Part shown: one piece after another, positions 6,473 through 22,830 of the stretch
Position numbering within the stretch: position 1 is the stretch's first letter
Layout: each line of letters begins with the position of its first letter
DNA from: a virus
Taxonomy: Duplodnaviria; Heunggongvirae; Uroviricota; Caudoviricetes
Direction: 5' to 3' (one strand)
Virus record (IMG/VR): IMGVR_UViG_2663763054_000006
DNA: 22,830 nt
Program-made: the position numbers and the translations under genes
The notes under the pieces: model-generated
What the model was told of the DNA's origin: nothing
What the model saw: only the letters and a program-made list of their open reading frames with translations
The model's database searches: none

Positions 6473-7918
6473 ATGGGTAAAGGCAGCAGTAAGGGGCATA
6501 CCCCGCGCGAAGCGAAGGACAACCTGAAATCCACGCAGTTGCTGAGTGTGATTGATGCCATCAGCGAAGGGCCGGTTGACGGTCCGGTGGATGGATTAAA
6601 AAGCGTGCTGCTGAACGGTACGCCGGTCCTGGACAGCGAGGGGAAGACAAACTTTTCCGGTGTTACGGTGGTGTTCCGTGCAGGTGAGCAGGAGCAGACA
6701 CCGCCGGAGGGTTTTGAATCCTCCGGCTCCGAGACGGTGCTGGGTACGGAAGTGAAATATGACACGCCGATCACCCGGACCATCACGTCGGCAAACATCG
6801 ACCGTCTGCGCCTGACCTTCGGTGTGCAGGCACTGGTGGAAACCACCTCAAAGGGTGACCGGAATCCGTCGGAAGTCCGCCTGCTGGTTCAGATACAGCG
6901 TAACGGTGGCTGGGTGACGGAAAAAGACATCACCATTAAGGGCAAAACCACTTCGCAGTATCTGGCCTCGGTGGTGGTGGGTAACCTGCCGCCGCGCCCG
7001 TTTAATATCCGGATGCGCAGGATGACACCGGACAGCACCACAGACCAGCTGCAGAACAAAACGCTCTGGTCGTCGTACACCGAAATCATCGATGTGAAAC
7101 AGTGCTACCCGAACACGGCGCTGGTCGGCGTGCAGGTGGATTCAGAGCAGTTCGGTAACCAGCAGGTGAGTCGCAATTATCATCTTCGCGGGCGCATTCT
7201 GCAGGTGCCGTCGAACTATAACCCGCAGACGCGGCAATACAGCGGTATCTGGGACGGAACGCTTAAGCCAGCATACAGCAACAACATGGCCTGGTGTCTG
7301 TGGGACATGCTCACTCATCCGCGCTACGGCATGGGGAAACGTCTTGGTGCGGCAGATGTGGACAAATGGGCGCTGTATGTCATCGGCCAGTACTGCGACC
7401 AGTCAGTGACGGACGGATTTGGCGGCACGGAGCCGCGCATCACCTGTAACTCTTACCTGACCACACAGCGTAAGGCGTGGGATGTTCTCAGTGATTTCTG
7501 CTCGGCGATGCGCTGTATGCCGGTATGGAACGGACAGATGCTGACGTTCGTGCAGGACCGACCGTCGGATAAGGTGTGGACCTATAACCGCAGTAATGTG
7601 GTGATGCCGGACGATGGCGCGCCGTTCCGCTACAGCTTCAGCGCCCTGAAGGACCGCCATAATGCCGTTGAGGTGAACTGGATTGACCCAGATAACGGCT
7701 GGGAGACGGCGACAGAGCTTGTGGAGGATACGCAGGCCATTGCCCGTTACGGTCGTAATGTCACGAAGATGGATGCCTTTGGCTGTACCAGCCGGGGGCA
7801 GGCACACCGAGCCGGGCTGTGGCTGATTAAAACGGAACTGCTGGAAACGCAGACCGTGGACTTCAGCGTGGGCGCAGAAGGGCTTCGCCATGTACCGGGT
7901 GATGTCATTGAAATCTGC
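6473..7918 (+). CDS. J: J fragment (aa 1-482), ends at the N-marked junction at 7921
   Basis: Colinear J N-terminal region through ...[21 protein letters not shown], then N and mid-K sequence. Confidence 0.8.
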
Positions 7919-8947: not shown

Positions 8948-9007
8948 TGCAAAATGTTTTATGTGAAATCGCCTCCGGGCGGTTTTATCGTTTATGGAGC
9001 ATGACGA

Positions 9008-10396
9008 ATGGGTAAAGGCAGCAGTAAGGGGCATACCCCGCGCGAAGCGAAGGACAACCTGAAGTCCACGCAGCTGCTGAGTGTGATCGATGCCATCAGC
9101 GAAGGGCCGGTTGAAGGTCCGGTGGATGGATTAAAAAGCGTGCTGCTGAACAGTACGCCGGTGCTGGACAGTGAGGGGAATACCAACATCTCCGGCGTCA
9201 CGGTGGTGTTCCGGGCAGGTGAGCAGGAGCAGTCACCGCCGGAGGGATTTGAATCCTCCGGCTCCGAGACGGTGCTGGGTACGGAAGTGAAATATGACAC
9301 GCCGATCACCCGGACCATCACGTCGGCAAACATTGACCGACTGCGTTTTACCTTCGGTGTACAGGCACTGGTGGAAACCACCTCAAAGGGAGACAGGAAT
9401 CCGTCTGAAGTTCGCCTGCTGGTTCAGATACAGCGTAACGGTGGCTGGGTGACGGAAAAAGACATCACCATTAAGGGCAAAACCACCTCGCAGTATCTGG
9501 CCTCGGTGGTGGTGGATAACCTGCCGCCGCGCCCGTTTAATATCCGGATGCGCAGAATGACGCCGGACAGCACCACAGACCAGCTGCAGAACAAAACGCT
9601 CTGGTCGTCATACACCGAAATCATCGATGTGAAACAGTGCTACCCGAACACGGCACTGGTCGGCGTACAGGTGGATTCGGAGCAGTTCGGCAGCCAGCAG
9701 GTGAGCCGTAATTATCATCTTCGCGGGCGCATTCTGCAGGTGCCGTCGAACTATAATCCGCAGACGCGGCAATACAGCGGTATCTGGGACGGAACGTTAA
9801 AACCGGCATACAGCAACAACATGGCCTGGTGTCTGTGGGATATGCTGACCCATCCGCGCTATGGCATGGGGAAACGTCTTGGTGCGGCAGATGTGGATAA
9901 ATGGGCGCTGTATGTCATCGGCCAGTACTGTGACCAGTCGGTGCCGGACGGCTTTGGCAGCACGGAGCCGCGCATCACCTGTAATGCCTGGCTGACCACA
10001 CAGCGCAAGGCGTGGGATGTGCTCAGTGATTTCTGCTCGGCGATGCGCTGTATGCCGGTATGGAACGGGCAGACGCTGACGTTCGTGCAGGACCGACAGT
10101 CGGATAAGGTGTGGGCCTATAACCGCAGTAATGTGGTGATGCCGGATGATGGCGCGCCGTTCCGCTACAGTTTCAGCGCCCTGAAAGACCGCCATAATGC
10201 CGTTGAGGTGAACTGGATTGACCCGGATAACGGTAAGCAGAACACGTATTTCTCGTCACTGGATAACATGGTTGCCCAGGGCAATGTTCTGCCCGTTCTG
10301 TACGGTGAAATGCGCGTGGGGTCACGTGTGGTTTCTCAGGAGATCAGCACGGCAGACGAAGGGGATGGTGGTCAGGTTGTGGTGATTGGTCGCTGA
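9008..10396 (+). CDS. Chimeric ORF: J aa 1-409 (distinct allele) fused in frame to the last 53 aa of I
   Basis: J sequence runs to ...NWIDPDNG, then switches to I C-terminus KQNTYFSSLDNMVAQGNV...VVVIGR at the shared 10-nt cggataacgg (10224-10233). Confidence 0.75.
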   Translation: MGKGSSKGHTPREAKDNLKSTQLLSVIDAISEGPVEGPVDGLKSVLLNSTPVLDSEGNTNISGVTVVFRAGEQEQSPPEGFESSGSETVLGTEVKYDTPITRTITSANIDRLRFTFGVQALVETTSKGDRNPSEVRLLVQIQRNGGWVTEKDITIKGKTTSQYLASVVVDNLPPRPFNIRMRRMTPDSTTDQLQNKTLWSSYTEIIDVKQCYPNTALVGVQVDSEQFGSQQVSRNYHLRGRILQVPSNYNPQTRQYSGIWDGTLKPAYSNNMAWCLWDMLTHPRYGMGKRLGAADVDKWALYVIGQYCDQSVPDGFGSTEPRITCNAWLTTQRKAWDVLSDFCSAMRCMPVWNGQTLTFVQDRQSDKVWAYNRSNVVMPDDGAPFRYSFSALKDRHNAVEVNWIDPDNGKQNTYFSSLDNMVAQGNVLPVLYGEMRVGSRVVSQEISTADEGDGGQVVVIGR

Positions 10397-10456: not shown

Positions 10457-12007
10457 ATGGGTAAAGGCAGCAGTAAGGGGCATACCCCGCGCGAAGCGAA
10501 GGACAACCTGAAATCCACGCAGTTGCTGAGTGTGATTGATGCCATCAGCGAAGGGCCGGTTGACGGTCCGGTGGATGGATTAAAAAGCGTGCTGCTGAAC
10601 GGTACGCCGGTCCTGGACAGCGAGGGGAAGACAAACTTTTCCGGTGTTACGGTGGTGTTCCGTGCAGGTGAGCAGGAGCAGACACCGCCGGAGGGTTTTG
10701 AATCCTCCGGCTCCGAGACGGTGCTGGGTACGGAAGTGAAATATGACACGCCGATCACCCGGACCATCACGTCGGCAAACATCGACCGTCTGCGCCTGAC
10801 CTTCGGTGTGCAGGCACTGGTGGAAACCACCTCAAAGGGTGACCGGAATCCGTCGGAAGTCCGCCTGCTGGTTCAGATACAGCGTAACGGTGGCTGGGTG
10901 ACGGAAAAAGACATCACCATTAAGGGCAAAACCACCTCGCAGTATCTGGCCTCGGTGGTGGTGGATAACCTGCCGCCGCGCCCGTTTAATATCCGGATGC
11001 GCAGAATGACGCCGGACAGCACCACAGACCAGCTGCAGAACAAAACGCTCTGGTCGTCATACACCGAAATCATCGATGTGAAACAGTGCTACCCGAACAC
11101 GGCACTGGTCGGCGTACAGGTGGATTCGGAGCAGTTCGGCAGCCAGCAGGTGAGCCGTAATTATCATCTTCGCGGGCGCATTCTGCAGGTGCCGTCGAAC
11201 TATAATCCGCAGACGCGGCAATACAGCGGTATCTGGGACGGAACGTTAAAACCGGCATACAGCAACAACATGGCCTGGTGTCTGTGGGATATGCTGACCC
11301 ATCCGCGCTATGGCATGGGGAAACGTCTTGGTGCGGCAGATGTGGATAAATGGGCGCTGTATGTCATCGGCCAGTACTGTGACCAGTCGGTGCCGGACGG
11401 CTTTGGCAGCACGGAGCCGCGCATCACCTGTAATGCCTGGCTGACCACACAGCGCAAGGCGTGGGATGTGCTCAGTGATTTCTGCTCGGCGATGCGCTGT
11501 ATGCCGGTATGGAACGGGCAGACGCTGACGTTCGTGCAGGACCGACAGTCGGATAAGGTGTGGGCCTATAACCGCAGTAATGTGGTGATGCCGGATGATG
11601 GCGCGCCGTTCCGCTACAGTTTCAGCGCCCTGAAAGACCGCCATAATGCCGTTGAGGTGAACTGGATTGACCCGGATAACGGCTGGGAGACGGCGACAGA
11701 GCTTGTGGAGGATACGCAGGCCATTGTCCGTTACGGTCGTAACGTCACGAAGATGGATGCCTTTGGCTGTACCAGCCGGGGGCAGGCACACCGCGCCGGG
11801 CTGTGGCTGATTAAAACGGAACTGCTGGAGACGCAGACCGTGGATTTCAGCGTGGGTGCTGAAGGGCTTCGTCATGTACCGGGCGATGTCATTGAAATCT
11901 GCGATGATGACTATGCCGGTATCCGCACCGGCGGGCGCGTGCTGGCGGTGAACAGCCAGACCCGGACGCTGACGCTCGACCGTGAAATCACGCTGCCATC
12001 CTCCGGC
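10457..12007 (+). CDS. J: J fragment (aa 1-517), ends at the N-marked junction at 12008
   Basis: Colinear J to ...[10 protein letters not shown], then N and a frame-shifted restart of J at aa 115. Confidence 0.8.
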
Positions 12008-12008
12008 N

Positions 12009-15000
12009 ACCTTCGGTGTGCAGGCACTGGTGGAAACCACCTCAAAGGGTGACCGGAATCCGTCGGAAGTCCGCCTGCTGGTTCAGATACAGCGTAACGG
12101 TGGCTGGGTGACGGAAAAAGACATCACCATTAAGGGCAAAACCACTTCGCAGTATCTGGCCTCGGTGGTGGTGGGTAACCTGCCGCCGCGCCCGTTTAAT
12201 ATCCGGATGCGCAGGATGACACCGGACAGCACCACAGACCAGCTGCAGAACAAAACGCTCTGGTCGTCGTACACCGAAATCATCGATGTGAAACAGTGCT
12301 ACCCGAACACGGCGCTGGTCGGCGTGCAGGTGGATTCAGAGCAGTTCGGTAACCAGCAGGTGAGTCGCAATTATCATCTTCGCGGGCGCATTCTGCAGGT
12401 GCCGTCGAACTATAACCCGCAGACGCGGCAATACAGCGGTATCTGGGACGGAACGCTTAAGCCAGCATACAGCAACAACATGGCCTGGTGTCTGTGGGAC
12501 ATGCTCACTCATCCGCGCTACGGCATGGGGAAACGTCTTGGTGCGGCAGATGTGGACAAATGGGCGCTGTATGTCATCGGCCAGTACTGCGACCAGTCAG
12601 TGACGGACGGATTTGGCGGCACGGAGCCGCGCATCACCTGTAACTCTTACCTGACCACACAGCGTAAGGCGTGGGATGTTCTCAGTGATTTCTGCTCGGC
12701 GATGCGCTGTATGCCGGTATGGAACGGGCAGACGCTGACGTTCGTGCAGGACCGACAGTCGGATAAGGTGTGGGCCTATAACCGCAGTAATGTGGTGATG
12801 CCGGATGATGGCGCGCCGTTCCGCTACAGTTTCAGCGCCCTGAAAGACCGCCATAATGCCGTTGAGGTGAACTGGATTGACCCAGATAACGGCTGGGAGA
12901 CGGCGACAGAGCTTGTGGAGGATACGCAGGCCATTGTCCGTTACGGTCGTAACGTCACGAAGATGGATGCCTTTGGCTGTACCAGCCGGGGGCAGGCACA
13001 CCGCGCCGGGCTGTGGCTGATTAAAACGGAACTGCTGGAAACGCAGACCGTGGACTTCAGCGTGGGCGCAGAAGGGCTTCGCCATGTACCGGGTGATGTC
13101 ATTGAAATCTGCGATGATGATTATGCCGGTATCAGCACCGGTGGTCGCGTACTGGCGGTGAACAGCCAGACCCGGACGCTGACGCTCGACCGTGAAATCA
13201 CGCTGCCATCCTCCGGCACCACGCTGATAAGCCTGGTTGACGGGCAGGGGAATCCGGTCAGCGTGGAGGTCCAGTCCGTCACCGACGGCGTGAAGGTAAA
13301 AGTGAGCCGTGTTCCTGACGGTGTTGCTGAATACAGCGTGTGGGGGCTGAAGCTGCCGACGCTGCACCAGCGATTGTTCCGCTGCGTGAGTATCCGTGAG
13401 AACGACGACGGCACGTATGCCATCACCGCCGTGCAGCATGTGCCGGAAAAAGAAGCCATCGTGGATAACGGGGCGCACTTTGACGGCGACCAGAGCGGCA
13501 CGGTGAATGGTGTCACGCCGCCAGCGGTGCAGCACCTGACTGCCGAAGTCACCGCAGACAGCGGGGAATATCAGGTGCTGGCGCGCTGGGACACGCCGAA
13601 GGTGGTGAAGGGCGTGAGCTTCCTGCTCCGTCTGACCGTAACAGCGGATGACGGCAGTGAGCGGCTGGTCAGCACGGCCCGGACGACGGAAACCACTTAC
13701 CGCTTCACACAACTGGCGCTGGGGAACTACAGGCTGACAGTCCGGGCAGTAAATGCGTGGGGGCAGCAGGGCGATCCGGCGTCGGTATCGTTCCGGATTG
13801 CCGCACCGGCAGCGCTGTCGCGGATTGAGCTGACGCCGGGCTATTTTCAGATAACCGCCACGCCGCATCTTGCGGTTTATGATCCGACGGTACAGTTTGA
13901 GTTCTGGTTCTCGGAAAAGCGGATTGCGGATATCAGGCAGGTTGAAACCACAGCACGCTATCTTGGCACGGCGCTGTACTGGATAGCCGCCAGTATCAAT
14001 ATCAAACCGGGCCATGATTATTACTTTTATATCCGCAGTGTGAACACCGTTGGCAAATCGGCATTCGTGGAGGCTGTTGGTCAGCCGAGTGATGATGCAT
14101 CCGGTTATCTGGATTTTTTCAAAGGCGAGATAGGGAAAACCCATCTGGCTCAGGAGCTGTGGACGCAGATTGATAACGGTCAGCTTGCGCCTGACCTGGC
14201 TGAAATCAGGACGTCCATTACGGATGTCAGCAATGAAATCACGCAGACCGTGGATTTCAGCGTGGGTGCTGAAGGGCTTCGTCATGTACCGGGCGATGTC
14301 ATTGAAATCTGCGATGATGACTATGCCGGTATCCGCACCGGCGGGCGCGTGCTGGCGGTGAACAGCCAGACCCGGACGCTGACGCTCGACCGTGAAATCA
14401 CGCTGCCGTCCTCCGGTACCACGCTGATAAGCCTGGTTGACGGAAGTGGCAATCCGGTCAGCGTGGAGGTCCAGTCCGTCACCGACGGCGTGAAGGTAAA
14501 AGTGAGCCGTGTTCCTGACGGTGTTGCTGAATACAGCGTGTGGGGGCTGAAGCTGCCGACGCTGCACCAGCGATTGTTCCGCTGCGTGAGTATCCGTGAG
14601 AACGACGACGGCACGTATGCCATCACCGCCGTGCAGCATGTGCCGGAAAAAGAGGCCATCGTGGATAACGGGGCACACTTTGACGGTGACCGGCGCGGCA
14701 CGGTGAATGGTGTCACGCCGCCAGCGGTGCAGCACCTGACTGCCGAAGTCACCGCAGACAGCGGGGAATATCAGGTGCTGGCGCGATGGGACACGCCGAA
14801 GGTGGTGAAGGGTGTGAGCTTCCTGCTCCGTCTGACCGTAACAGCGGATGACGGCAGTGAGCGGCTGGTCAGCACGGCCCGGACGACGGAAACCACTTAC
14901 CGCTTCACACAACTGGCGCTGGGGAACTACAGGCTGACAGTCCGGGCAGTAAATGCGTGGGGGCAGCAGGGCGATCCGGCGTCGGTATCGTTCCGGATTG

Positions 15001-18000
15001 CCGCACCGGCAGCGCTGTCGCGGATTGAGCTGACGCCGGGCTATTTTCAGATAACCGCCACGCCGCATCTTGCGGTTTATGATCCGACGGTACAGTTTGA
15101 GTTCTGGTTCTCGGAAAAGCGGATTGCGGATATCAGGCAGGTTGAAACCACAGCACGCTATCTTGGCACGGCGCTGTACTGGATAGCCGCCAGTATCAAT
15201 ATCAAACCGGGCCATGATTATTACTTTTATATCCGCAGTGTGAACACCGTTGGCAAATCGGCATTCGTGGAGGCTGTTGGTCAGCCGAGTGATGATGCAT
15301 CCGGTTATCTGGATTTTTTCAAAGGCGAGATAGGGAAAACCCATCTGGCTCAGGAGCTGTGGACGCAGATTGATAACGGTCAGCTTGCGCCTGACCTGGC
15401 TGAAATCAGGACGTCCATTACGGATGTCAGCAATGAAATCACGCAGACCGTCAATAAGAAACTGGAAGACCAGAGTGCGGCAATTCAGCAGATACAGAAG
15501 GTTCAGGTTGATACAAATAATAACCTGAACAGCATGTGGGCTGTGAAGCTGCAGCAGATGCAGGACGGACGCCTTTATATCGCGGGTATTGGTGCCGGTA
15601 TTGAGAACACCCCTGACGGCATGCAGAGTCAGGTGCTGCTGGCGGCGGACAGGATTGCGATGGTTAATCCTGCGAATGGCAACACAAAACCGATGTTTGT
15701 TGGTCAGGGCGATCAGATATTCATGAACGACGTGTTCCTGAAACGCCTGACGGCCCCCACCATTACCAGCGGTGGAAATCCATCGGCATTTTCCCTGACT
15801 CCGGACGGAAAGCTGACCGCTAAAAATGCGGATATCAGTGGCAGTGTGAATGCGAACGCCGGGACGCTCAACAATGTCACGGTAAATGAAAACTGTACGA
15901 TTAAGGGCATGCTGGAGGCGACNTGGGAGACGGCGACAGAGCTTGTGGAGGATACGCAGGCCATTGCCCGTTACGGTCGTAATGTCACGAAGATGGATGC
16001 CTTTGGCTGTACCAGCCGGGGGCAGGCACACCGAGCCGGGCTGTGGCTGATTAAAACGGAACTGCTGGAAACGCAGACCGTGGACTTCAGCGTGGGCGCA
16101 GAAGGGCTTCGCCATGTACCGGGTGATGTCATTGAAATCTGCGATGATGATTATGCCGGTATCAGCACCGGTGGTCGCGTACTGGCGGTGAACAGCCAGA
16201 CCCGGACGCTGACGCTCGACCGTGAAATCACGCTGCCGTCCTCCGGTACCACGCTGATAAGCCTGGTTGACGGAAGTGGCAATCCGGTCAGCGTGGAGGT
16301 CCAGTCCGTCACCGACGGCGTGAAGGTGAAAGTGAGCCGGGTTCCTGACGGCGTTGCAGAATACAGCGTGTGGGGGCTGAAGCTGCCGACGCTGCGCCAG
16401 CGTCTGTTCCGCTGCGTGAGTATCCGTGAGAACGACGACGGCACGTATGCCATCACCGCCGTGCAGCATGTGCCGGAAAAAGAGGCCATCGTGGATAACG
16501 GGGCACACTTTGACGGTGACCGGCGCGGCACGGTGAATGGTGTCACGCCGCCAGCGGTGCAGCATCTGACCGCCGAAGTCACCGCAGACAGCGGGGAATA
16601 TCAGGTGCTGGCGCGATGGGACACGCCGAAGGTGGTGAAGGGTGTGAGCTTCCTGCTTCGCCTGACCGTGGCAGCGGACGACGGCAGTGAGCGGCTGGTC
16701 AGCACAGCCAGGACGACGGAAACCACATACCGCTTCAGGCAGCTGGCGCTGGGGAATTACAGTCTGACAGTCCGGGCGGTAAATGCCCGGGGGCAGCAGG
16801 GCGATCCGGCGTCGGTATCGTTCCGGATTGCCGCACCGGCAGCGCTGTCGCGGATTGAGCTGACGCCGGGCTATTTTCAGATAACCGCCACGCCGCATCT
16901 TGCGGTTTATGATCCGACGGTACAGTTTGAGTTCTGGTTCTCGGAAAAGCGGATTGCGGATATCAGGCAGGTTGAAACCACAGCACGCTATCTTGGCACG
17001 GCGCTGTACTGGATAGCCGCCAGTATCAATATCAGGCCGGGCCATGATTATTATTTTTACGTTCGCAGTGTGAACACCGTTGGCAAATCGGCATTTGTGG
17101 AGGCCATCGGTCGGGCGAGCGATGATGCAGAAGGTTATCTGAATTTTTATAAAGGGTTGATCAATAAAACGCATCTCGGCAAGGAGTTGTGGACGCAGAT
17201 TGATAACGGTCAGCTTGCGCCTGACCTGGCTGAAATCAGGACGTCCATTACGGATGTCAGCAATGAAATCACGCAGACCGTCAATAAGAAACTGGAAGAC
17301 CAGAGTGCGGCAATTCAGCAGATACAGAAGGTTCAGGTTGATACAAATAATAACCTGAACAGCATGTGGGCTGTGAAGCTGCAGCAGATGCAGGACGGAC
17401 GCCTTTATATCGCGGGTATTGGTGCCGGTATTGAGAACACCCCTGACGGCATGCAGAGTCAGGTGCTGCTGGCGGCGGACAGGATTGCGATGGTTAATCC
17501 TGCGAATGGCAACACAAAACCGATGTTTGTTGGTCAGGGCGATCAGATATTCATGAACGACGTGTTCCTGAAACGCCTGACGGCCCCCACCATTACCAGC
17601 GGTGGAAATCCATCGGCATTTTCCCTGACTCCGGACGGAAAGCTGACCGCTAAAAATGCGGATATCAGTGGCAGTGTGAATGCGAACGCCGGGACGCTCA
17701 ACAATGTCACGGTAAATGAAAACTGTACGATTAAGGGCATGCTGGAGGCGACTCAGGTCAGAGGTGACTTCGTTAAAGCTGTATCCAAATCATTTCCGAA
17801 ACAGGCTGGTACGTGGGGTAACACGGAAACACCAAACGGGACGGTTACAGTCACCATAAGCGATGATCATAACTTTGACCGCCAGATTATTATTCCGCCC
17901 ATTATTTTTAACGGTATAGCGTATGACGATCCGGGGAGCGGAAATAACCCAGGAGGCACGCGATACACGGGTTATGGTTTTGAAGTTCGCAAAAACGGCG

Positions 18001-18194
18001 TATTAATCGCATCCAGAGAAACTAAAGGTGCCATTCCCGGTAGTTACAGTGCAGTTATTGATATGCCTAGTGGTGGTGGTAGCGTCACTCTGGAGTTTAA
18101 GATTTTCCAGAAAGGCAATCAGGGGGCAGGCAATATCACCGACTGTACGGTGATTGTGACCAAAAAAGCGGCTTCCGGCATCAGTATTCGTTGA
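12009..18194 (+). CDS. J: Rearranged J: aa 115 to about 1010, then aa 463 to about 1120, then aa 410 to the C-terminus (2070-aa ORF; native J inferred at about 1165 aa)
   Basis: Blocks such as [26 protein letters not shown] and the FN3-like segment [33 protein letters not shown] occur three times in this ORF. Internal junctions at 14241-14251 (microhomology) and N at 15923. Ends ...[15 protein letters not shown]. Confidence 0.7.
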
Positions 18195-18216
18195 AATATT
18201 TATAACCCCAATAAAT

Positions 18217-18243
18217 GGCGTCAGGAATGACGCCTTTTTTATT
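18217..18243 (+). terminator. Rho-independent terminator after J (GGCGTCA-GGAA-TGACGCC plus TTTTTTATT)
   Basis: Perfect 7-bp GC-rich stem with a 4-nt loop followed by a T-run, 23 nt after the J stop. Confidence 0.7.
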
Positions 18244-18264
18244 GCAGAAAAGCGAGAGGTAATT

Positions 18265-18558
18265 ATGCGTAAAGTTTGTGCAGCCATTTTGTCCGCAGCC
18301 ATTTGCCTGGCCGTATCCGGTGCGCCTGCATGGGCGTCTGAACATCAGTCCACGCTGAGCGCGGGGTATCTTCATGCCCGGACCAACGTTCCCGGCAGTG
18401 ATGATCTGAACGGGATTAACGTGAAATACCGTTATGAGTTTACGGATACGCTGGGGCTGGTGACGTCATTCAGCTATGCAGGAGACAAGAATCGCCAGCT
18501 GACCCGTTACAGCGATACCCGCTGGCATGAAGATTCCGTGCGTAACCGCTGGTTCAGC
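18265..18558 (+). CDS. lom: Lom-family outer membrane protein (Ail/Lom/OmpX-like), N-terminal 98 aa, fused at the N to J
   Basis: Signal peptide MRKVCAAILSAAICLAVSGAPAWA followed by SE; family motifs GINVKYRYEFTD and SFSYAGD. GAGAGG SD upstream. Position directly after J, as in lambda. Confidence 0.8.
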
Positions 18559-18561
18559 GNG

Positions 18562-20571
18562 GCGGTGAACAGCCAGACCCGGACGCTGACGCTCGACCGT
18601 GAAATCACGCTGCCATCCTCCGGCACCACGCTGATAAGCCTGGTTGACGGGCAGGGGAATCCGGTCAGCGTGGAGGTCCAGTCCGTCACCGACGGCGTGA
18701 AGGTAAAAGTGAGCCGTGTTCCTGACGGTGTTGCTGAATACAGCGTGTGGGGGCTGAAGCTGCCGACGCTGCACCAGCGATTGTTCCGCTGCGTGAGTAT
18801 CCGTGAGAACGACGACGGCACGTATGCCATCACCGCCGTGCAGCATGTGCCGGAAAAAGAAGCCATCGTGGATAACGGGGCGCACTTTGACGGCGACCAG
18901 AGCGGCACGGTGAATGGTGTCACGCCGCCAGCGGTGCAGCACCTGACTGCCGAAGTCACCGCAGACAGCGGGGAATATCAGGTGCTGGCGCGCTGGGACA
19001 CGCCGAAGGTGGTGAAGGGCGTGAGCTTCCTGCTCCGTCTGACCGTAACAGCGGATGACGGCAGTGAGCGGCTGGTCAGCACGGCCCGGACGACGGAAAC
19101 CACTTACCGCTTCACACAACTGGCGCTGGGGAACTACAGGCTGACAGTCCGGGCAGTAAATGCGTGGGGGCAGCAGGGCGATCCGGCGTCGGTATCGTTC
19201 CGGATTGCCGCACCGGCAGCGCTGTCGCGGATTGAGCTGACGCCGGGCTATTTTCAGATAACCGCCACGCCGCATCTTGCGGTTTATGATCCGACGGTAC
19301 AGTTTGAGTTCTGGTTCTCGGAAAAGCGGATTGCGGATATCAGGCAGGTTGAAACCACAGCACGCTATCTTGGCACGGCGCTGTACTGGATAGCCGCCAG
19401 TATCAATATCAAACCGGGCCATGATTATTACTTTTATATCCGCAGTGTGAACACCGTTGGCAAATCGGCATTCGTGGAGGCTGTTGGTCAGCCGAGTGAT
19501 GATGCATCCGGTTATCTGGATTTTTTCAAAGGCGAGATAGGGAAAACCCATCTGGCTCAGGAGCTGTGGACGCAGATTGATAACGGTCAGCTTGCGCCGG
19601 ACCTGACTGAAATCAGGACGTCCATTACGAATGTCAGCAATGAAATCACGCAAACCGTCAATAAAAAACTGGAAAATCAGAGTGCTGCAATCCAGCAGAT
19701 ACAGAAAGTTCAGGTTGATACAAATAATAACCTGAACAGCATGTGGGCTGTGAAGCTGCAGCAGATGCAGGACGGACGCCTTTATATCGCGGGTATTGGT
19801 GCCGGTATTGAGAACACCCCTGACGGCATGCAGAGTCAGGTGCTGCTGGCGGCGGACAGGATTGCGATGGTTAATCCTGCGAATGGCAACACAAAACCGA
19901 TGTTTGTTGGTCAGGGCGATCAGATATTCATGAACGACGTGTTCCTGAAACGCCTGACGGCCCCCACCATTACCAGCGGTGGAAATCCATCGGCATTTTC
20001 CCTGACTCCGGACGGAAAGCTGACCGCTAAAAATGCGGATATCAGTGGCAGTGTGAATGCGAACGCCGGGACGCTCAACAATGTCACGGTAAATGAAAAC
20101 TGTACGATTAAGGGCATGCTGGAGGCGACTCAGGTCAGAGGTGACTTCGTTAAAGCTGTATCCAAATCATTTCCGAAACAGGCTGGTACGTGGGGTAACA
20201 CGGAAACACCAAACGGGACGGTTACAGTCACCATAAGCGATGATCATAACTTTGACCGCCAGATTATTATTCCGCCCATTATTTTTAACGGTATAGCGTA
20301 TGACGATCCGGGGAGCGGAAATAACCCAGGAGGCACGCGATACACGGGTTATGGTTTTGAAGTTCGCAAAAACGGCGTATTAATCGCATCCAGAGAAACT
20401 AAAGGTGCCATTCCCGGTAGTTACAGTGCAGTTATTGATATGCCTAGTGGTGGTGGTAGCGTCACTCTGGAGTTTAAGATTTTCCAGAAAGGCAATCAGG
20501 GGGCAGGCAATATCACCGACTGTACGGTGATTGTGACCAAAAAAGCGGCTTCCGGCATCAGTATTCGTTGA
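18562..20571 (+). CDS. J: J fragment aa 497 to end (about 669 aa), in frame with the preceding lom fragment through the N
   Basis: [30 protein letters not shown]... through ...[10 protein letters not shown] stop. Confidence 0.75.
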
Positions 20572-20935
20572 AATATTTATAACCCCAATAAATGGCGTCA
20601 GGAATGACGCCTTTTTTATTGCAGAAAAGCGAGAGGTAATTATGCGTAAAGTTTGTGCAGCCATTTTGTCCGCAGCCATTTGCCTGGCCGTATCCGGTGC
20701 GCCTGCATGGGCGTCTGAACATCAGTCCACGCTGAGCGCGGGGTATCTTCATGCCCGGACCAACGTTCCCGGCAGTGATGATCTGAACGGGATTAACGTG
20801 AAATACCGTTATGAGTTTACGGATACGCTGGGGCTGGTGACGTCATTCAGCTATGCAGGAGACAAGAATCGCCAGCTGACCCGTTACAGCGATACCCGCT
20901 GGCATGAAGATTCCGTGCGTAACCGCTGGTTCAGC
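20572..20935 (+). repeat. Direct repeat of 18195-18558 (terminator plus lom 5' part), offset 2377
   Basis: Identical intergenic region, hairpin and lom N-terminal translation. Confidence 0.85.
20594..20620 (+). terminator. Rho-independent terminator after J (second copy)
   Basis: Same hairpin and T-run as 18217-18243. Confidence 0.7.
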
Positions 20936-21079
20936 GTGATGGCGGGGCCGTCTGTGCGCGTGAATGAATGGTTCAGCGCGTATGCGATGGCGGGTGTGGC
21001 TTACAGCCGTGTGTCGACTTTTTCCGGGGATTATATCCGCGTAACTGACAATAAGGGGAAAACGCACGATGTGCTGACC
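20642..21079 (+). CDS. lom: Lom-family outer membrane protein, N-terminal 146 aa, interrupted by the N run
   Basis: Continues beyond the first lom fragment (...VMAGPSVRVNEWFSAYAMAGVAYSRVSTFSGDYIRVTDNKGKTHDVLT), showing the lom body is in the data. Confidence 0.8.
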
Positions 21080-21090
21080 NNNNNNNNNNN
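21080..21090. other. Run of 11 N: gap or join between lom (aa 146) and the J C-terminal region
   Basis: Ambiguous bases flanked by unrelated genes. Confidence 0.9.
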
Positions 21091-22567
21091 CAGCACAGCC
21101 AGGACGACGGAAACCACATACCGCTTCAGGCAGCTGGCGCTGGGGAATTACAGTCTGACAGTCCGGGCGGTAAATGCCCGGGGGCAGCAGGGCGATCCGG
21201 CGTCGGTATCGTTCCGGATTGCGGCACCGGCAGCGCCTGTCACTATTGAACTGATACCGGGGTATTTTCAGATAACGGCGGTCCCGAAACTGGCTGTATA
21301 TGACCCGACGGTGCAGTTTGAGTTCTGGTTTTCGGAAAAGCGGATTGCGGATATCAGGCAGGTTGAAACCAGCGCCCGCTATCTTGGCACGGCGCTGTAC
21401 TGGATAGCCGCCAGTATCAATATCAGGCCGGGCCATGATTATTATTTTTACGTTCGCAGTGTGAACACCGTTGGCAAATCGGCATTTGTGGAGGCCATCG
21501 GTCGGGCGAGCGATGATGCAGAAGGTTATCTGAATTTTTATAAAGGGTTGATCAATAAAACGCATCTCGGCAAGGAGTTGTGGACGCAGATTGATAACGG
21601 TCAGCTTGCGCCGGACCTGACTGAAATCAGGACGTCCATTACGAATGTCAGCAATGAAATCACGCAAACCGTCAATAAAAAACTGGAAAATCAGAGTGCT
21701 GCAATCCAGCAGATACAGAAAGTTCAGGTTGATACAAATAATAACCTGAACAGCATGTGGGCTGTGAAGCTGCAACAGATGAAGGACGGACGCCTTTATA
21801 TTGCGGGTATCGGTGCCGGTATTGAGAATACGCCAGCAGGAATGCAGAGTCAGGTGCTGCTGGCGGCAGACAGGATTGCGATGATTAATCCTGCGAATGG
21901 CAACACAAAGCCGATGTTTGTTGGTCAGGGCGATCAGATATTCATGAACGACGTGTTCCTGAAATGCCTGACGGCTCCGACCATTACCAGCGGCGGTAAT
22001 CCTCCGGCATTTTCCCTGACACCTGGCGGACGGCTGACGGCGAAAAATGCCGATATCAGCGGTAACGTGAACGCGAACTCCGGGACGCTCAACAACGTCA
22101 CGATTAATAAGAACTGTCGGGTTCTGGGAAAATTGTCCGCGAACCAGATTGAAGGCGATCTCGTTAAAACAGTGGGCAAACCTTTCCCACGGGACTCCCG
22201 GGCACCGGAGAGGTGGCCATCAGGGACCATTACCGTCAGGGTTTATGACGATCAGCCGTTTGATCGGCAAATTGTTATTCCCGCGGTGGCGTTTCGCGGT
22301 GCTAAACATGAGCGGAAGAATAACAATATTTATTCGTCATGCCGCCTGATAGTGAAGAAAAACGGTGCTGAAATTTATAACCGAACGACCCTGGATAATA
22401 CGCTGATATATACGGGTGTTATTGATATGCCTGCCGGTCACGGTCACATGACGCTGGAGTTTTCTGTATCGGCATGGCTGGTAAATGGCTGGTATCCCAC
22501 AGCAAGTATCAGCGATTTGCTGGTTGTGGTGATGAAGAAAGCCACTGCAGGCATCACGATTAGCTGA
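21091..22567 (+). CDS. J: J C-terminal fragment carrying the alternative receptor-binding module (ends ...[16 protein letters not shown])
   Basis: Upstream part is highly similar to the other J alleles; the last 150 aa or so (from about [19 protein letters not shown]) is strongly divergent from the ...ASGISIR module. Confidence 0.75.
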
Positions 22568-22586
22568 ATTTTATAACCCAGATACG

Positions 22587-22613
22587 GGCACCAGAAATGG
22601 TGCCTTTTTTATT
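22587..22613 (+). terminator. Rho-independent terminator after J, variant stem (GGCACCA-GAAA-TGGTGCC plus TTTTTTATT)
   Basis: Stem differs from 18217-18234 at paired positions, with complementarity preserved. Confidence 0.7.
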
Positions 22614-22634
22614 GCAGAAAAGCGAGAGGTAATT

Positions 22635-22830
22635 ATGCGTAAAGTTTGTGCAGCCATTTTGTCCGCAGCCATTTGCCTGGCCGTATCCGGTGCGCCTGCA
22701 TGGGCGTCTGAACATCAGTCCACGCTGAGCGCGGGGTATCTTCATGCCCGGACCAACGTTCCCGGCAGTGATGATCTGAACGGGATTAACGTGAAATACC
22801 GTTATGAGTTTACGGATACGCTGGGGCTGG
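22635..22830 (+). CDS. lom: Lom-family outer membrane protein, third copy, 5' part (runs off the window end)
   Basis: Identical N-terminal translation to the other lom copies; GAGAGG SD at 22624-22629. Confidence 0.8.
   Translation, partial: MRKVCAAILSAAICLAVSGAPAWASEHQSTLSAGYLHARTNVPGSDDLNGINVKYRYEFTDTLGL

Follow-up and report, generated by a model that had tools for sequence, protein, structure and literature searches.

The gpJ of phage lambda carries an Ig-like domain that enters the LamB trimer with its four bottom loops, and this binding is then relayed up the fibre so that the tail opens (PMC11101478). OmpC has been assigned to two further J proteins, as A8 gpJ delivers via this porin (PMC11338833) and phage phi330 requires it, according to knockout and complementation experiments (PMC12502783). 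In an analysis of 1207 natural J homologues, the C-terminal region of J (residues 960–1132) was found to recombine independently of the rest of the protein and to contain four indel hot spots, at positions 1012, 1048/9, 1077/8, and 1107 (Maddamsetti et al. 2018; PMC6646904). For this family, solved structures and a curated Pfam model are already available, and the modularity of the gpJ domain has already been used to retarget lambda particles through gpJ engineering. Swapping of the tip between phages by recombination is thus a real and already published phenomenon.

The window examined here is a stretch of 22,830 nt (22.8 kb) of viral DNA, which contains several partial J genes. The C-terminal receptor-binding module of the last of them (variant 2) is compared below with the module found in other J fragments of the same window (variant 1). 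Variant 2 is an annotated and very common gpJ allele, and a domain identical to it is annotated in RefSeq genomes. We consider it very probable that the locus encodes the tip domain of a lambdoid gpJ that is exchanged as a recombining cassette.

Structure of the window

By combining a self-comparison with an alignment to the finished prophage of E. coli FDAARGOS_943 (L001), used as the reference for the window, we found that the 22.8 kb consist of nine lambda-type tail-region fragments that overlap in content and are placed head to tail, this content running from the end of H through M, L, K, I, and J to lom. The window is therefore a mis-scaffolded chain of paralogous prophage fragments and no natural genome stretch. 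The joins between fragments, and the ORFs that cross them, are the following:

3623, 7921, 12008, 15923, and 18560: five of the six joins marked by N, with a single N each
21080–21090: sixth join marked by N, a scaffold gap of eleven N between the preceding lom fragment and the variant-2 J fragment
about 10224–10234 and about 14241–14251: two joins without N, where the neighbouring fragments overlap by about 11 nt
11982–18194 (2070 aa), 18265–20571, and 20642–22567 (641 aa): artefact ORFs crossing joins

The join at about 14241–14251 produces an in-frame pseudo-duplication of 1200 nt of J, and it is because of this pseudo-duplication that the window displays a sense ORF of 2070 aa and an antisense ORF of 1525 aa (12597–17174). 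Across the gap at 21080–21090, the matching L001 position changes from 10982, in lom, back to 9001, in the middle of J; the 641-aa ORF, in which the lom start codon is read through the gap into J, is an artefact. Any "tandem J genes" or giant ORFs taken from this window would likewise be artefacts. Variants 1 and 2 come from different prophages, whose fragments the scaffolder strung together; they are not neighbours in one phage.

Five fragments overlap at reference positions 9001–9582, where they differ from one another by 2–12%, which implies that the source carries at least five lambdoid J genes chained by the scaffolder. The fragment ending at the N in position 15923 contains, at 15884–15922, the first 40 nt or so of a variant-1-type cassette, and there are therefore three fragments with variant 1 and one with variant 2. 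Three of the J 3' fragments (21091–21960, 16700–17570, and 19077–19950) are patchworks in which blocks of 100% identity alternate with blocks of 70–88% identity, the identical partner changing from block to block. Such patchworks could result from gene conversion among co-resident prophages or from path switching by the assembler. The blocks of 100% identity between paralogues of the window, including the one at the start of lom, could in part be collapsed repeats or products of the same path switching. Because the window is a scaffold artefact with possible repeat collapse, our argument on the cassette leans on finished genomes.

The gpJ fragment and its downstream region

The piece of the window that carries variant 2 comprises the following features:

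21091–22830: variant-2 piece as a whole, with 491 codons from the end of J, the J–lom spacer, and 65 lom codons
21091–22567, + strand: 3' fragment of gpJ (tip attachment or host specificity protein J), covering the C-terminal 491 codons (reading frame from 21092) and the stop
21095–21229, + strand: Pfam Ig_J (end of the domain)
21233–21541, + strand: Pfam Ig_J_second
21701–22087, + strand: Pfam Phage_Tail_Tip
22106–22564, + strand: receptor-binding domain, variant 2, 153 aa, predicted Ig-like beta-sandwich
22175–22564, + strand: Pfam Ig_GpJ_C (PF12421), fragment residues 362–491
22586–22611, + strand: predicted intrinsic terminator, stem-loop GGGCACCAGAAATGGTGCCT followed by a T-run
22635–22830, + strand: 5' portion of the lom gene for an Ail/Lom outer-membrane beta-barrel, 65 codons up to where the window stops

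The 491-aa fragment (21092–22564) matched lambda J (PDB 8iyk) over lambda residues 669–1131 and through to the last residue of the fragment (E = 1.7e-186). Its domains come in the order Ig_J, Ig_J_second, Phage_Tail_Tip, and Ig_GpJ_C, which places the receptor-binding domain at the extreme C-terminus. This last domain matched PF12421 (Tip attachment protein J, C-terminal receptor binding domain) with 126.4 bits, for a cutoff of 26.2, over positions 2–135 of the 135 in the profile. Given the strength of the lambda J and Pfam matches, 22106–22564 is no chance ORF. An earlier note, made from the sequence of the window, had placed the module at 22105–22567; the peptide and the ending that it quoted are present, but its start is one base early, since the codon phase runs from 22106, and the TGA at 22565–22567 closes the variant-2 J.

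The predicted fold is in agreement with this assignment. The AlphaFold model of the variant-2 domain, which represents the monomer of a trimeric protein and in which the first 40 residues are of low confidence, is all-beta with a pLDDT of 81. The top Foldseek matches were 9wcb, 9wca, 8xck, and 8xcj (E-values from 1e-15 to 1e-18, TM 0.70–0.72), that is, A8 gpJ in complex with OmpC (9wcb_F, "A8 gpJ 713 with OmpC from EDL933", E = 9e-18, TM 0.70) or in the closed state without OmpC (9wca), and lambda gpJ in the closed state (8xck) or with LamB (8xcj; TM 0.71–0.72 for the two lambda structures). The profile match of 126 bits, the sequence similarity to J proteins of solved structure, and the modelled fold together identify the region with high confidence as a lambda-type gpJ C-terminal receptor-binding module, as the earlier note had proposed.

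In finished genomes, the identical domain belongs to a gpJ of 1159 aa and is surrounded by genes in the order L-K-I-J-lom-stf. It is through these genomes that variant 2 can be assigned to a lambda-type tail module (M-L-K-I-J-lom), the fragment in the window containing only the 3' end of J and the 5' end of lom. Over the last 491 residues of the 1159-aa protein, the window differs by 4 aa from L001 and by 10 aa from another finished prophage with variant 2 (L016), all of these differences lying in the 338 residues upstream of the domain. A frameshifted ipaH effector gene adjoins the gpJ-carrying prophage in both cases (L001 13374–15019; L016 7847–9410).

Downstream of the stop codon, we recovered the terminator–lom arrangement that had been described from the sequence. 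The hairpin at 22586–22605 has a stem of 8 bp with 5 GC pairs and a loop of 4 nt, and it is followed by TTTTTATT. Its fold energy is −14.2 kcal/mol (z = −3.4, RNA fold), and it is the sole terminator-like site in 22400–22830. A GC-rich stem-loop, a U-run, and a location 3' of a stop codon are all present, as predicted for an intrinsic terminator. A scan of the whole window against Rfam at gathering thresholds matched no family, and thus no known RNA element in the J–lom spacer. The ATG of lom lies at 22635, and the 65 codons present match positions 1–65 of the 199 in the Ail_Lom profile (PF06316; E = 5.2e-37, 128 bits). This lom start is 100% identical to those found behind both variant-1 copies (from 18265 and from 20642).

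Bounded divergence and its possible origins

The modules of variants 1 and 2 align from end to end, with 64 identical residues over 151 positions (42% aa identity) and a few indels, located in loops; the view that they have only short motifs in common must therefore be abandoned. Nucleotide identity along the variant-2 piece, measured in sliding identity and codon windows against the variant-1 copy at 16700–18559, is distributed as follows:

21091–21960: 93–100% for most of the stretch
21181–21300: local dip to 70–80%
21962–22105, + strand: 5' part of the exchanged module, 78–87%, almost all changes synonymous
22106–22530: 40–60%
J stop codon and terminator stem: identity rising again
about 22607 to 22830: 100%, starting in the T-run of the terminator and continuing into lom

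In 21962–22105, which corresponds to lambda residues 931–977 or so in the 8iyk alignment (base of the central straight fibre), 16–18 of the 20 residues in each window are still identical between the two variants. The 5' nucleotide boundary, near 21962, thus lies about 145 nt (48 codons) upstream of the boundary seen at the protein level, and the 3' boundary falls within the terminator, in its stem. The segment exchanged between this pair of variants would thus extend from about 21962 to about 22607. Divergence does not run on through the terminator and lom, as the complete identity downstream of 22607 attests. At 21965–21967, on the 5' edge of the exchanged module, the window has a TGC codon (Cys, in FLKCLTAPT) where lambda, variant 1, and the gpJ of L001 and L016 have Arg (CGC); this Cys is a private substitution or a sequencing error.

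Within the domain, the indels between the two variants fall in four predicted loops (lambda residues 1006–1015, approximately, 1046–1050, 1075, and 1111, via the 8iyk alignment), at or beside the published hot spots 1012, 1048/9, 1077/8, and 1107 (PMC6646904). Mean conservation, at 0.77 in strands versus 0.73 in loops, is uninformative, the alignment being dominated by variant-2-like sequences. The terminator stems also differ, GGCACC/GGTGCC in variant 2 (22586–22605) versus GGCGTC/GACGCC in variant 1 (18217–18234), but the two pair changes are compensatory and the hairpin is kept, which fits a functional hairpin that would travel with each cassette.

Finished genomes display the same pattern. 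The 1740-nt variant-2 fragment is colinear and gapless with finished gpJ–terminator–lom sequences, at 98.5% identity in FDAARGOS_943 and 98.6% in Shigella flexneri SFBU1023 and E. coli ECMA0423 (L002/L003). When L016, which carries variant 2, was compared across K-I-J-lom with L017 (strain XJW9B277), which carries variant 1, the two were 93–98% identical outside discrete islands, about 50% identical in the cassette, and back to 94% exactly at the J stop. Two other islands of low identity between these prophages, at L016 928–1190 and 3892–4290, lie in gene I and in the part of J encoding the alpha-helical shaft, the latter with a length difference (gpJ of 1159 aa vs. 1137 aa). The claim that recombination exchanges just the receptor-binding cassette is hence supported, with a refinement: divergence is indeed bounded by conserved flanks, but "just" is too narrow, as patches in other parts of J, in gene I, and in lom are mosaic too.

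Comparison of the window with SFBU1023 and ECMA0423 gave no mismatch over 562 nt (21966–22527) and 18 mismatches in the next 303 nt, of which 7 are in the last 13 codons (22528–22567) and 11 in lom (22635–22830). One and the same cassette is thus joined to differing 3' flanks. A second breakpoint can be placed at 22528, and from there on the window, in its final 13 J codons and in lom, derives from another lineage than the SFBU1023 and ECMA0423 copies. Bounded divergence and the presence of one cassette on different flanks are the two traits of the independently recombining J specificity module (PMC6646904), and both were found here.

In the explanation that we favor, the 3' end of a lambdoid prophage gpJ gene encodes an Ig-like receptor-binding domain, presumably trimeric, which forms the tip of the central tail fibre. 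If lambda gpJ on LamB and A8 gpJ on OmpC are taken as models, the bottom loops of this domain would dock into the extracellular face of a trimeric outer-membrane porin, and docking would trigger the opening of the tail. Variant 2 would be one of several long-diverged allele types that pass, as a recombining module, between prophages of E. coli and Shigella. Through homologous recombination upstream, in conserved fibre-shaft sequence (near 21962), and downstream, in the terminator or lom, the domain would move from one phage backbone to another, with a change in host range; phage Red/Rad52-type enzymes or host RecA may be responsible.

Other origins of the pattern have to be considered. The two variants may have diverged in place, their receptor-binding loops being subject to rapid point mutation and to diversifying selection, with no exchange of segments. 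The raised substitution and indel rates reported for residues 960–1132 of J homologues (PMC6646904) and the location of our indels in predicted loops agree with such a scenario. However, divergence starts with synonymous changes, 48 codons ahead of any divergence of the protein, and structurally conserved strands are also about 50% diverged in DNA. The boundaries are sharp, 100% identity resuming in the terminator T-run, and the identical 562-nt cassette is found beside different 3' flanks elsewhere. Moreover, trees of the specificity region and of the rest of J are incongruent, with a Robinson–Foulds value of 0.93 (PMC6646904). Divergence in place is accordingly very improbable. Hardly more credible, and if anything slightly less so, is the idea that the conserved flanks are an assembly artefact, a foreign cassette having been stitched onto collapsed repeat contigs in an arrangement absent from real genomes. 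The window is demonstrably mis-scaffolded, with its nine overlapping tail-region fragments, and three fragments agree at 100% over the start of lom. Yet the 1740-nt fragment is gapless and colinear with finished chromosomes at 98.5–98.6%, and the pattern of an island between flanks recurs between the finished L016 and L017.

A third scenario would have the cassette switched within one phage by a programmed mechanism, such as a diversity-generating retroelement or an invertible or shufflon-type segment. Comparable systems do target phage receptor-binding proteins, as with Mtd of Bordetella phage BPP-1, Gin of Mu, and Cin of P1. Against this, blastn and tblastn searches of about 9 kb on either side of gpJ in two finished genomes (L001 and L016) revealed no further copy of the cassette, neither a template nor an inverted one, and a local programmed switch is therefore excluded. 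Nor is any reverse transcriptase or invertase annotated near gpJ in these two genomes, and the differences between variants comprise indels and all types of substitutions. The probability that we grant to programmed switching is negligible, and exchange of the cassette by recombination between phages remains by far our preferred reading.

Distribution, candidate receptor, and relation to described J proteins

A megablast search with the 411-nt cassette, at a threshold of at least 80% nucleotide identity, found cassettes of the variant-2 type at 7346 places, distributed over 3365 of the 5426 complete E. coli genomes (62%). The variant-1 type cassette was present in 2106 of the 5426, and variant 2 is the commonest type of gpJ tip in E. 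coli. When only the best match of each record was retained, identity was at least 99% in 11 records, 95–99% in 4, 90–95% in 2799, and 80–90% in 574. Among the matches listed, all those spanning essentially the whole cassette were annotated as J-type tail tip or tail proteins. The type also occurs in E. albertii and E. ruysiae and, at 88–94% protein identity, in phage records that include Stx1a and Stx2a phages, O157 PPompW prophages, PhiR46_1, and PhiR49_2.

The closest relatives are gpJ proteins of finished genomes. At the protein level, the gpJ of E. coli FDAARGOS_943 (WP_197939856.1) and that of CFSAN029787 (WP_046880234.1) match the variant-2 receptor-binding domain at 100%, and those of S. 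flexneri SFBU1023 and E. coli ECMA0423 at 99%. In these four copies, the cassette DNA is 99.7–100% identical to that of the window and is followed by the same terminator–lom arrangement, with the difference, for SFBU1023 and ECMA0423, of the last 13 codons and lom. A partial protein labelled Shigella dysenteriae (P0047) is a further match at 100% identity. Taken with the ipaH gene that adjoins the best DNA matches, in strains of enteroinvasive type, it hints at Shigella or enteroinvasive E. coli as the source. A 3.8-kb contig labelled "MAG: Clostridiales bacterium" (L009, SFGJ01000067.1) also encodes, at 1307–1768, a gpJ receptor-binding domain that shares 59% identity with variant 2; this contig probably belongs to an enterobacterial phage and was assigned to the wrong bin.

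With respect to J proteins of described phages, the variant-2 domain is 64–65% identical to that of A8 and phi330, about 63.5% to that of phage 21, 41% to that of lambda (residues 978–1131), and about 41% to that of phage 434. The A8 sequence used here is the one printed in the PDB alignment, and the phi330 domain is 99% identical to it. Variant 2 is thus not nearly identical to the OmpC-binding type (A8/phi330), of which it is a sister, forming another allele type; at 41% identity, neither does it belong to the LamB-binding lambda type. Because A8 and phi330 are the closest among the tested types, OmpC, or a subset of OmpC alleles, would be the most likely receptor of variant 2, with a probability that we place slightly above even. 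On the other hand, given the 64% identity and the indels in putative contact loops, it is quite possible that variant 2 uses another receptor or another range of OmpC alleles. That variant 2 recognizes something other than OmpC (e.g., another porin), or tells OmpC alleles (for instance those of Shigella and enteroinvasive E. coli) sharply apart, seems to us rather unlikely; if true, co-resident variant-1 and variant-2 prophages would target different receptors. In the literature consulted, we found no experiment, complex structure, or direct receptor assignment for the variant-2 type, and no receptor named for the ECOR13-infecting phages PhiR46_1 and PhiR49_2, whose domain is 88–90% identical. 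The receptor of so common a tip type represents a modest and easily testable gap for the engineering of phage delivery.

Comparison with the described systems places variant 2 as follows. The gpJ of A8 and phi330 has the same domain and fold at the same position in the protein, and the sequences of the N-terminal strand and of the C-terminal end are common to both types, whereas about 35% of residues differ and three loops contain indels (after PR.., after KHE.., and in the SAW/SSS loop). The LamB-binding domain of lambda gpJ (residues 978–1132, approximately) is homologous over its full length and has the same Ig-like fold, which is predicted for variant 2, with four bottom loops. Lambda J also shares a conserved upstream fibre with variant 2 and the same terminator–lom arrangement downstream, but it is 1132 aa long, compared with 1159 aa for full variant-2 proteins, and its domain is only 41% identical. 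Finally, the exchanged module corresponds in concept to the J specificity region (lambda residues 960–1132; PMC6646904), and the indels between variants 1 and 2 lie at the four places described for it. It differs from that region in that the nucleotide breakpoint for this pair is slightly further upstream (about lambda residue 931) and in that its 3' end is mapped to the terminator.
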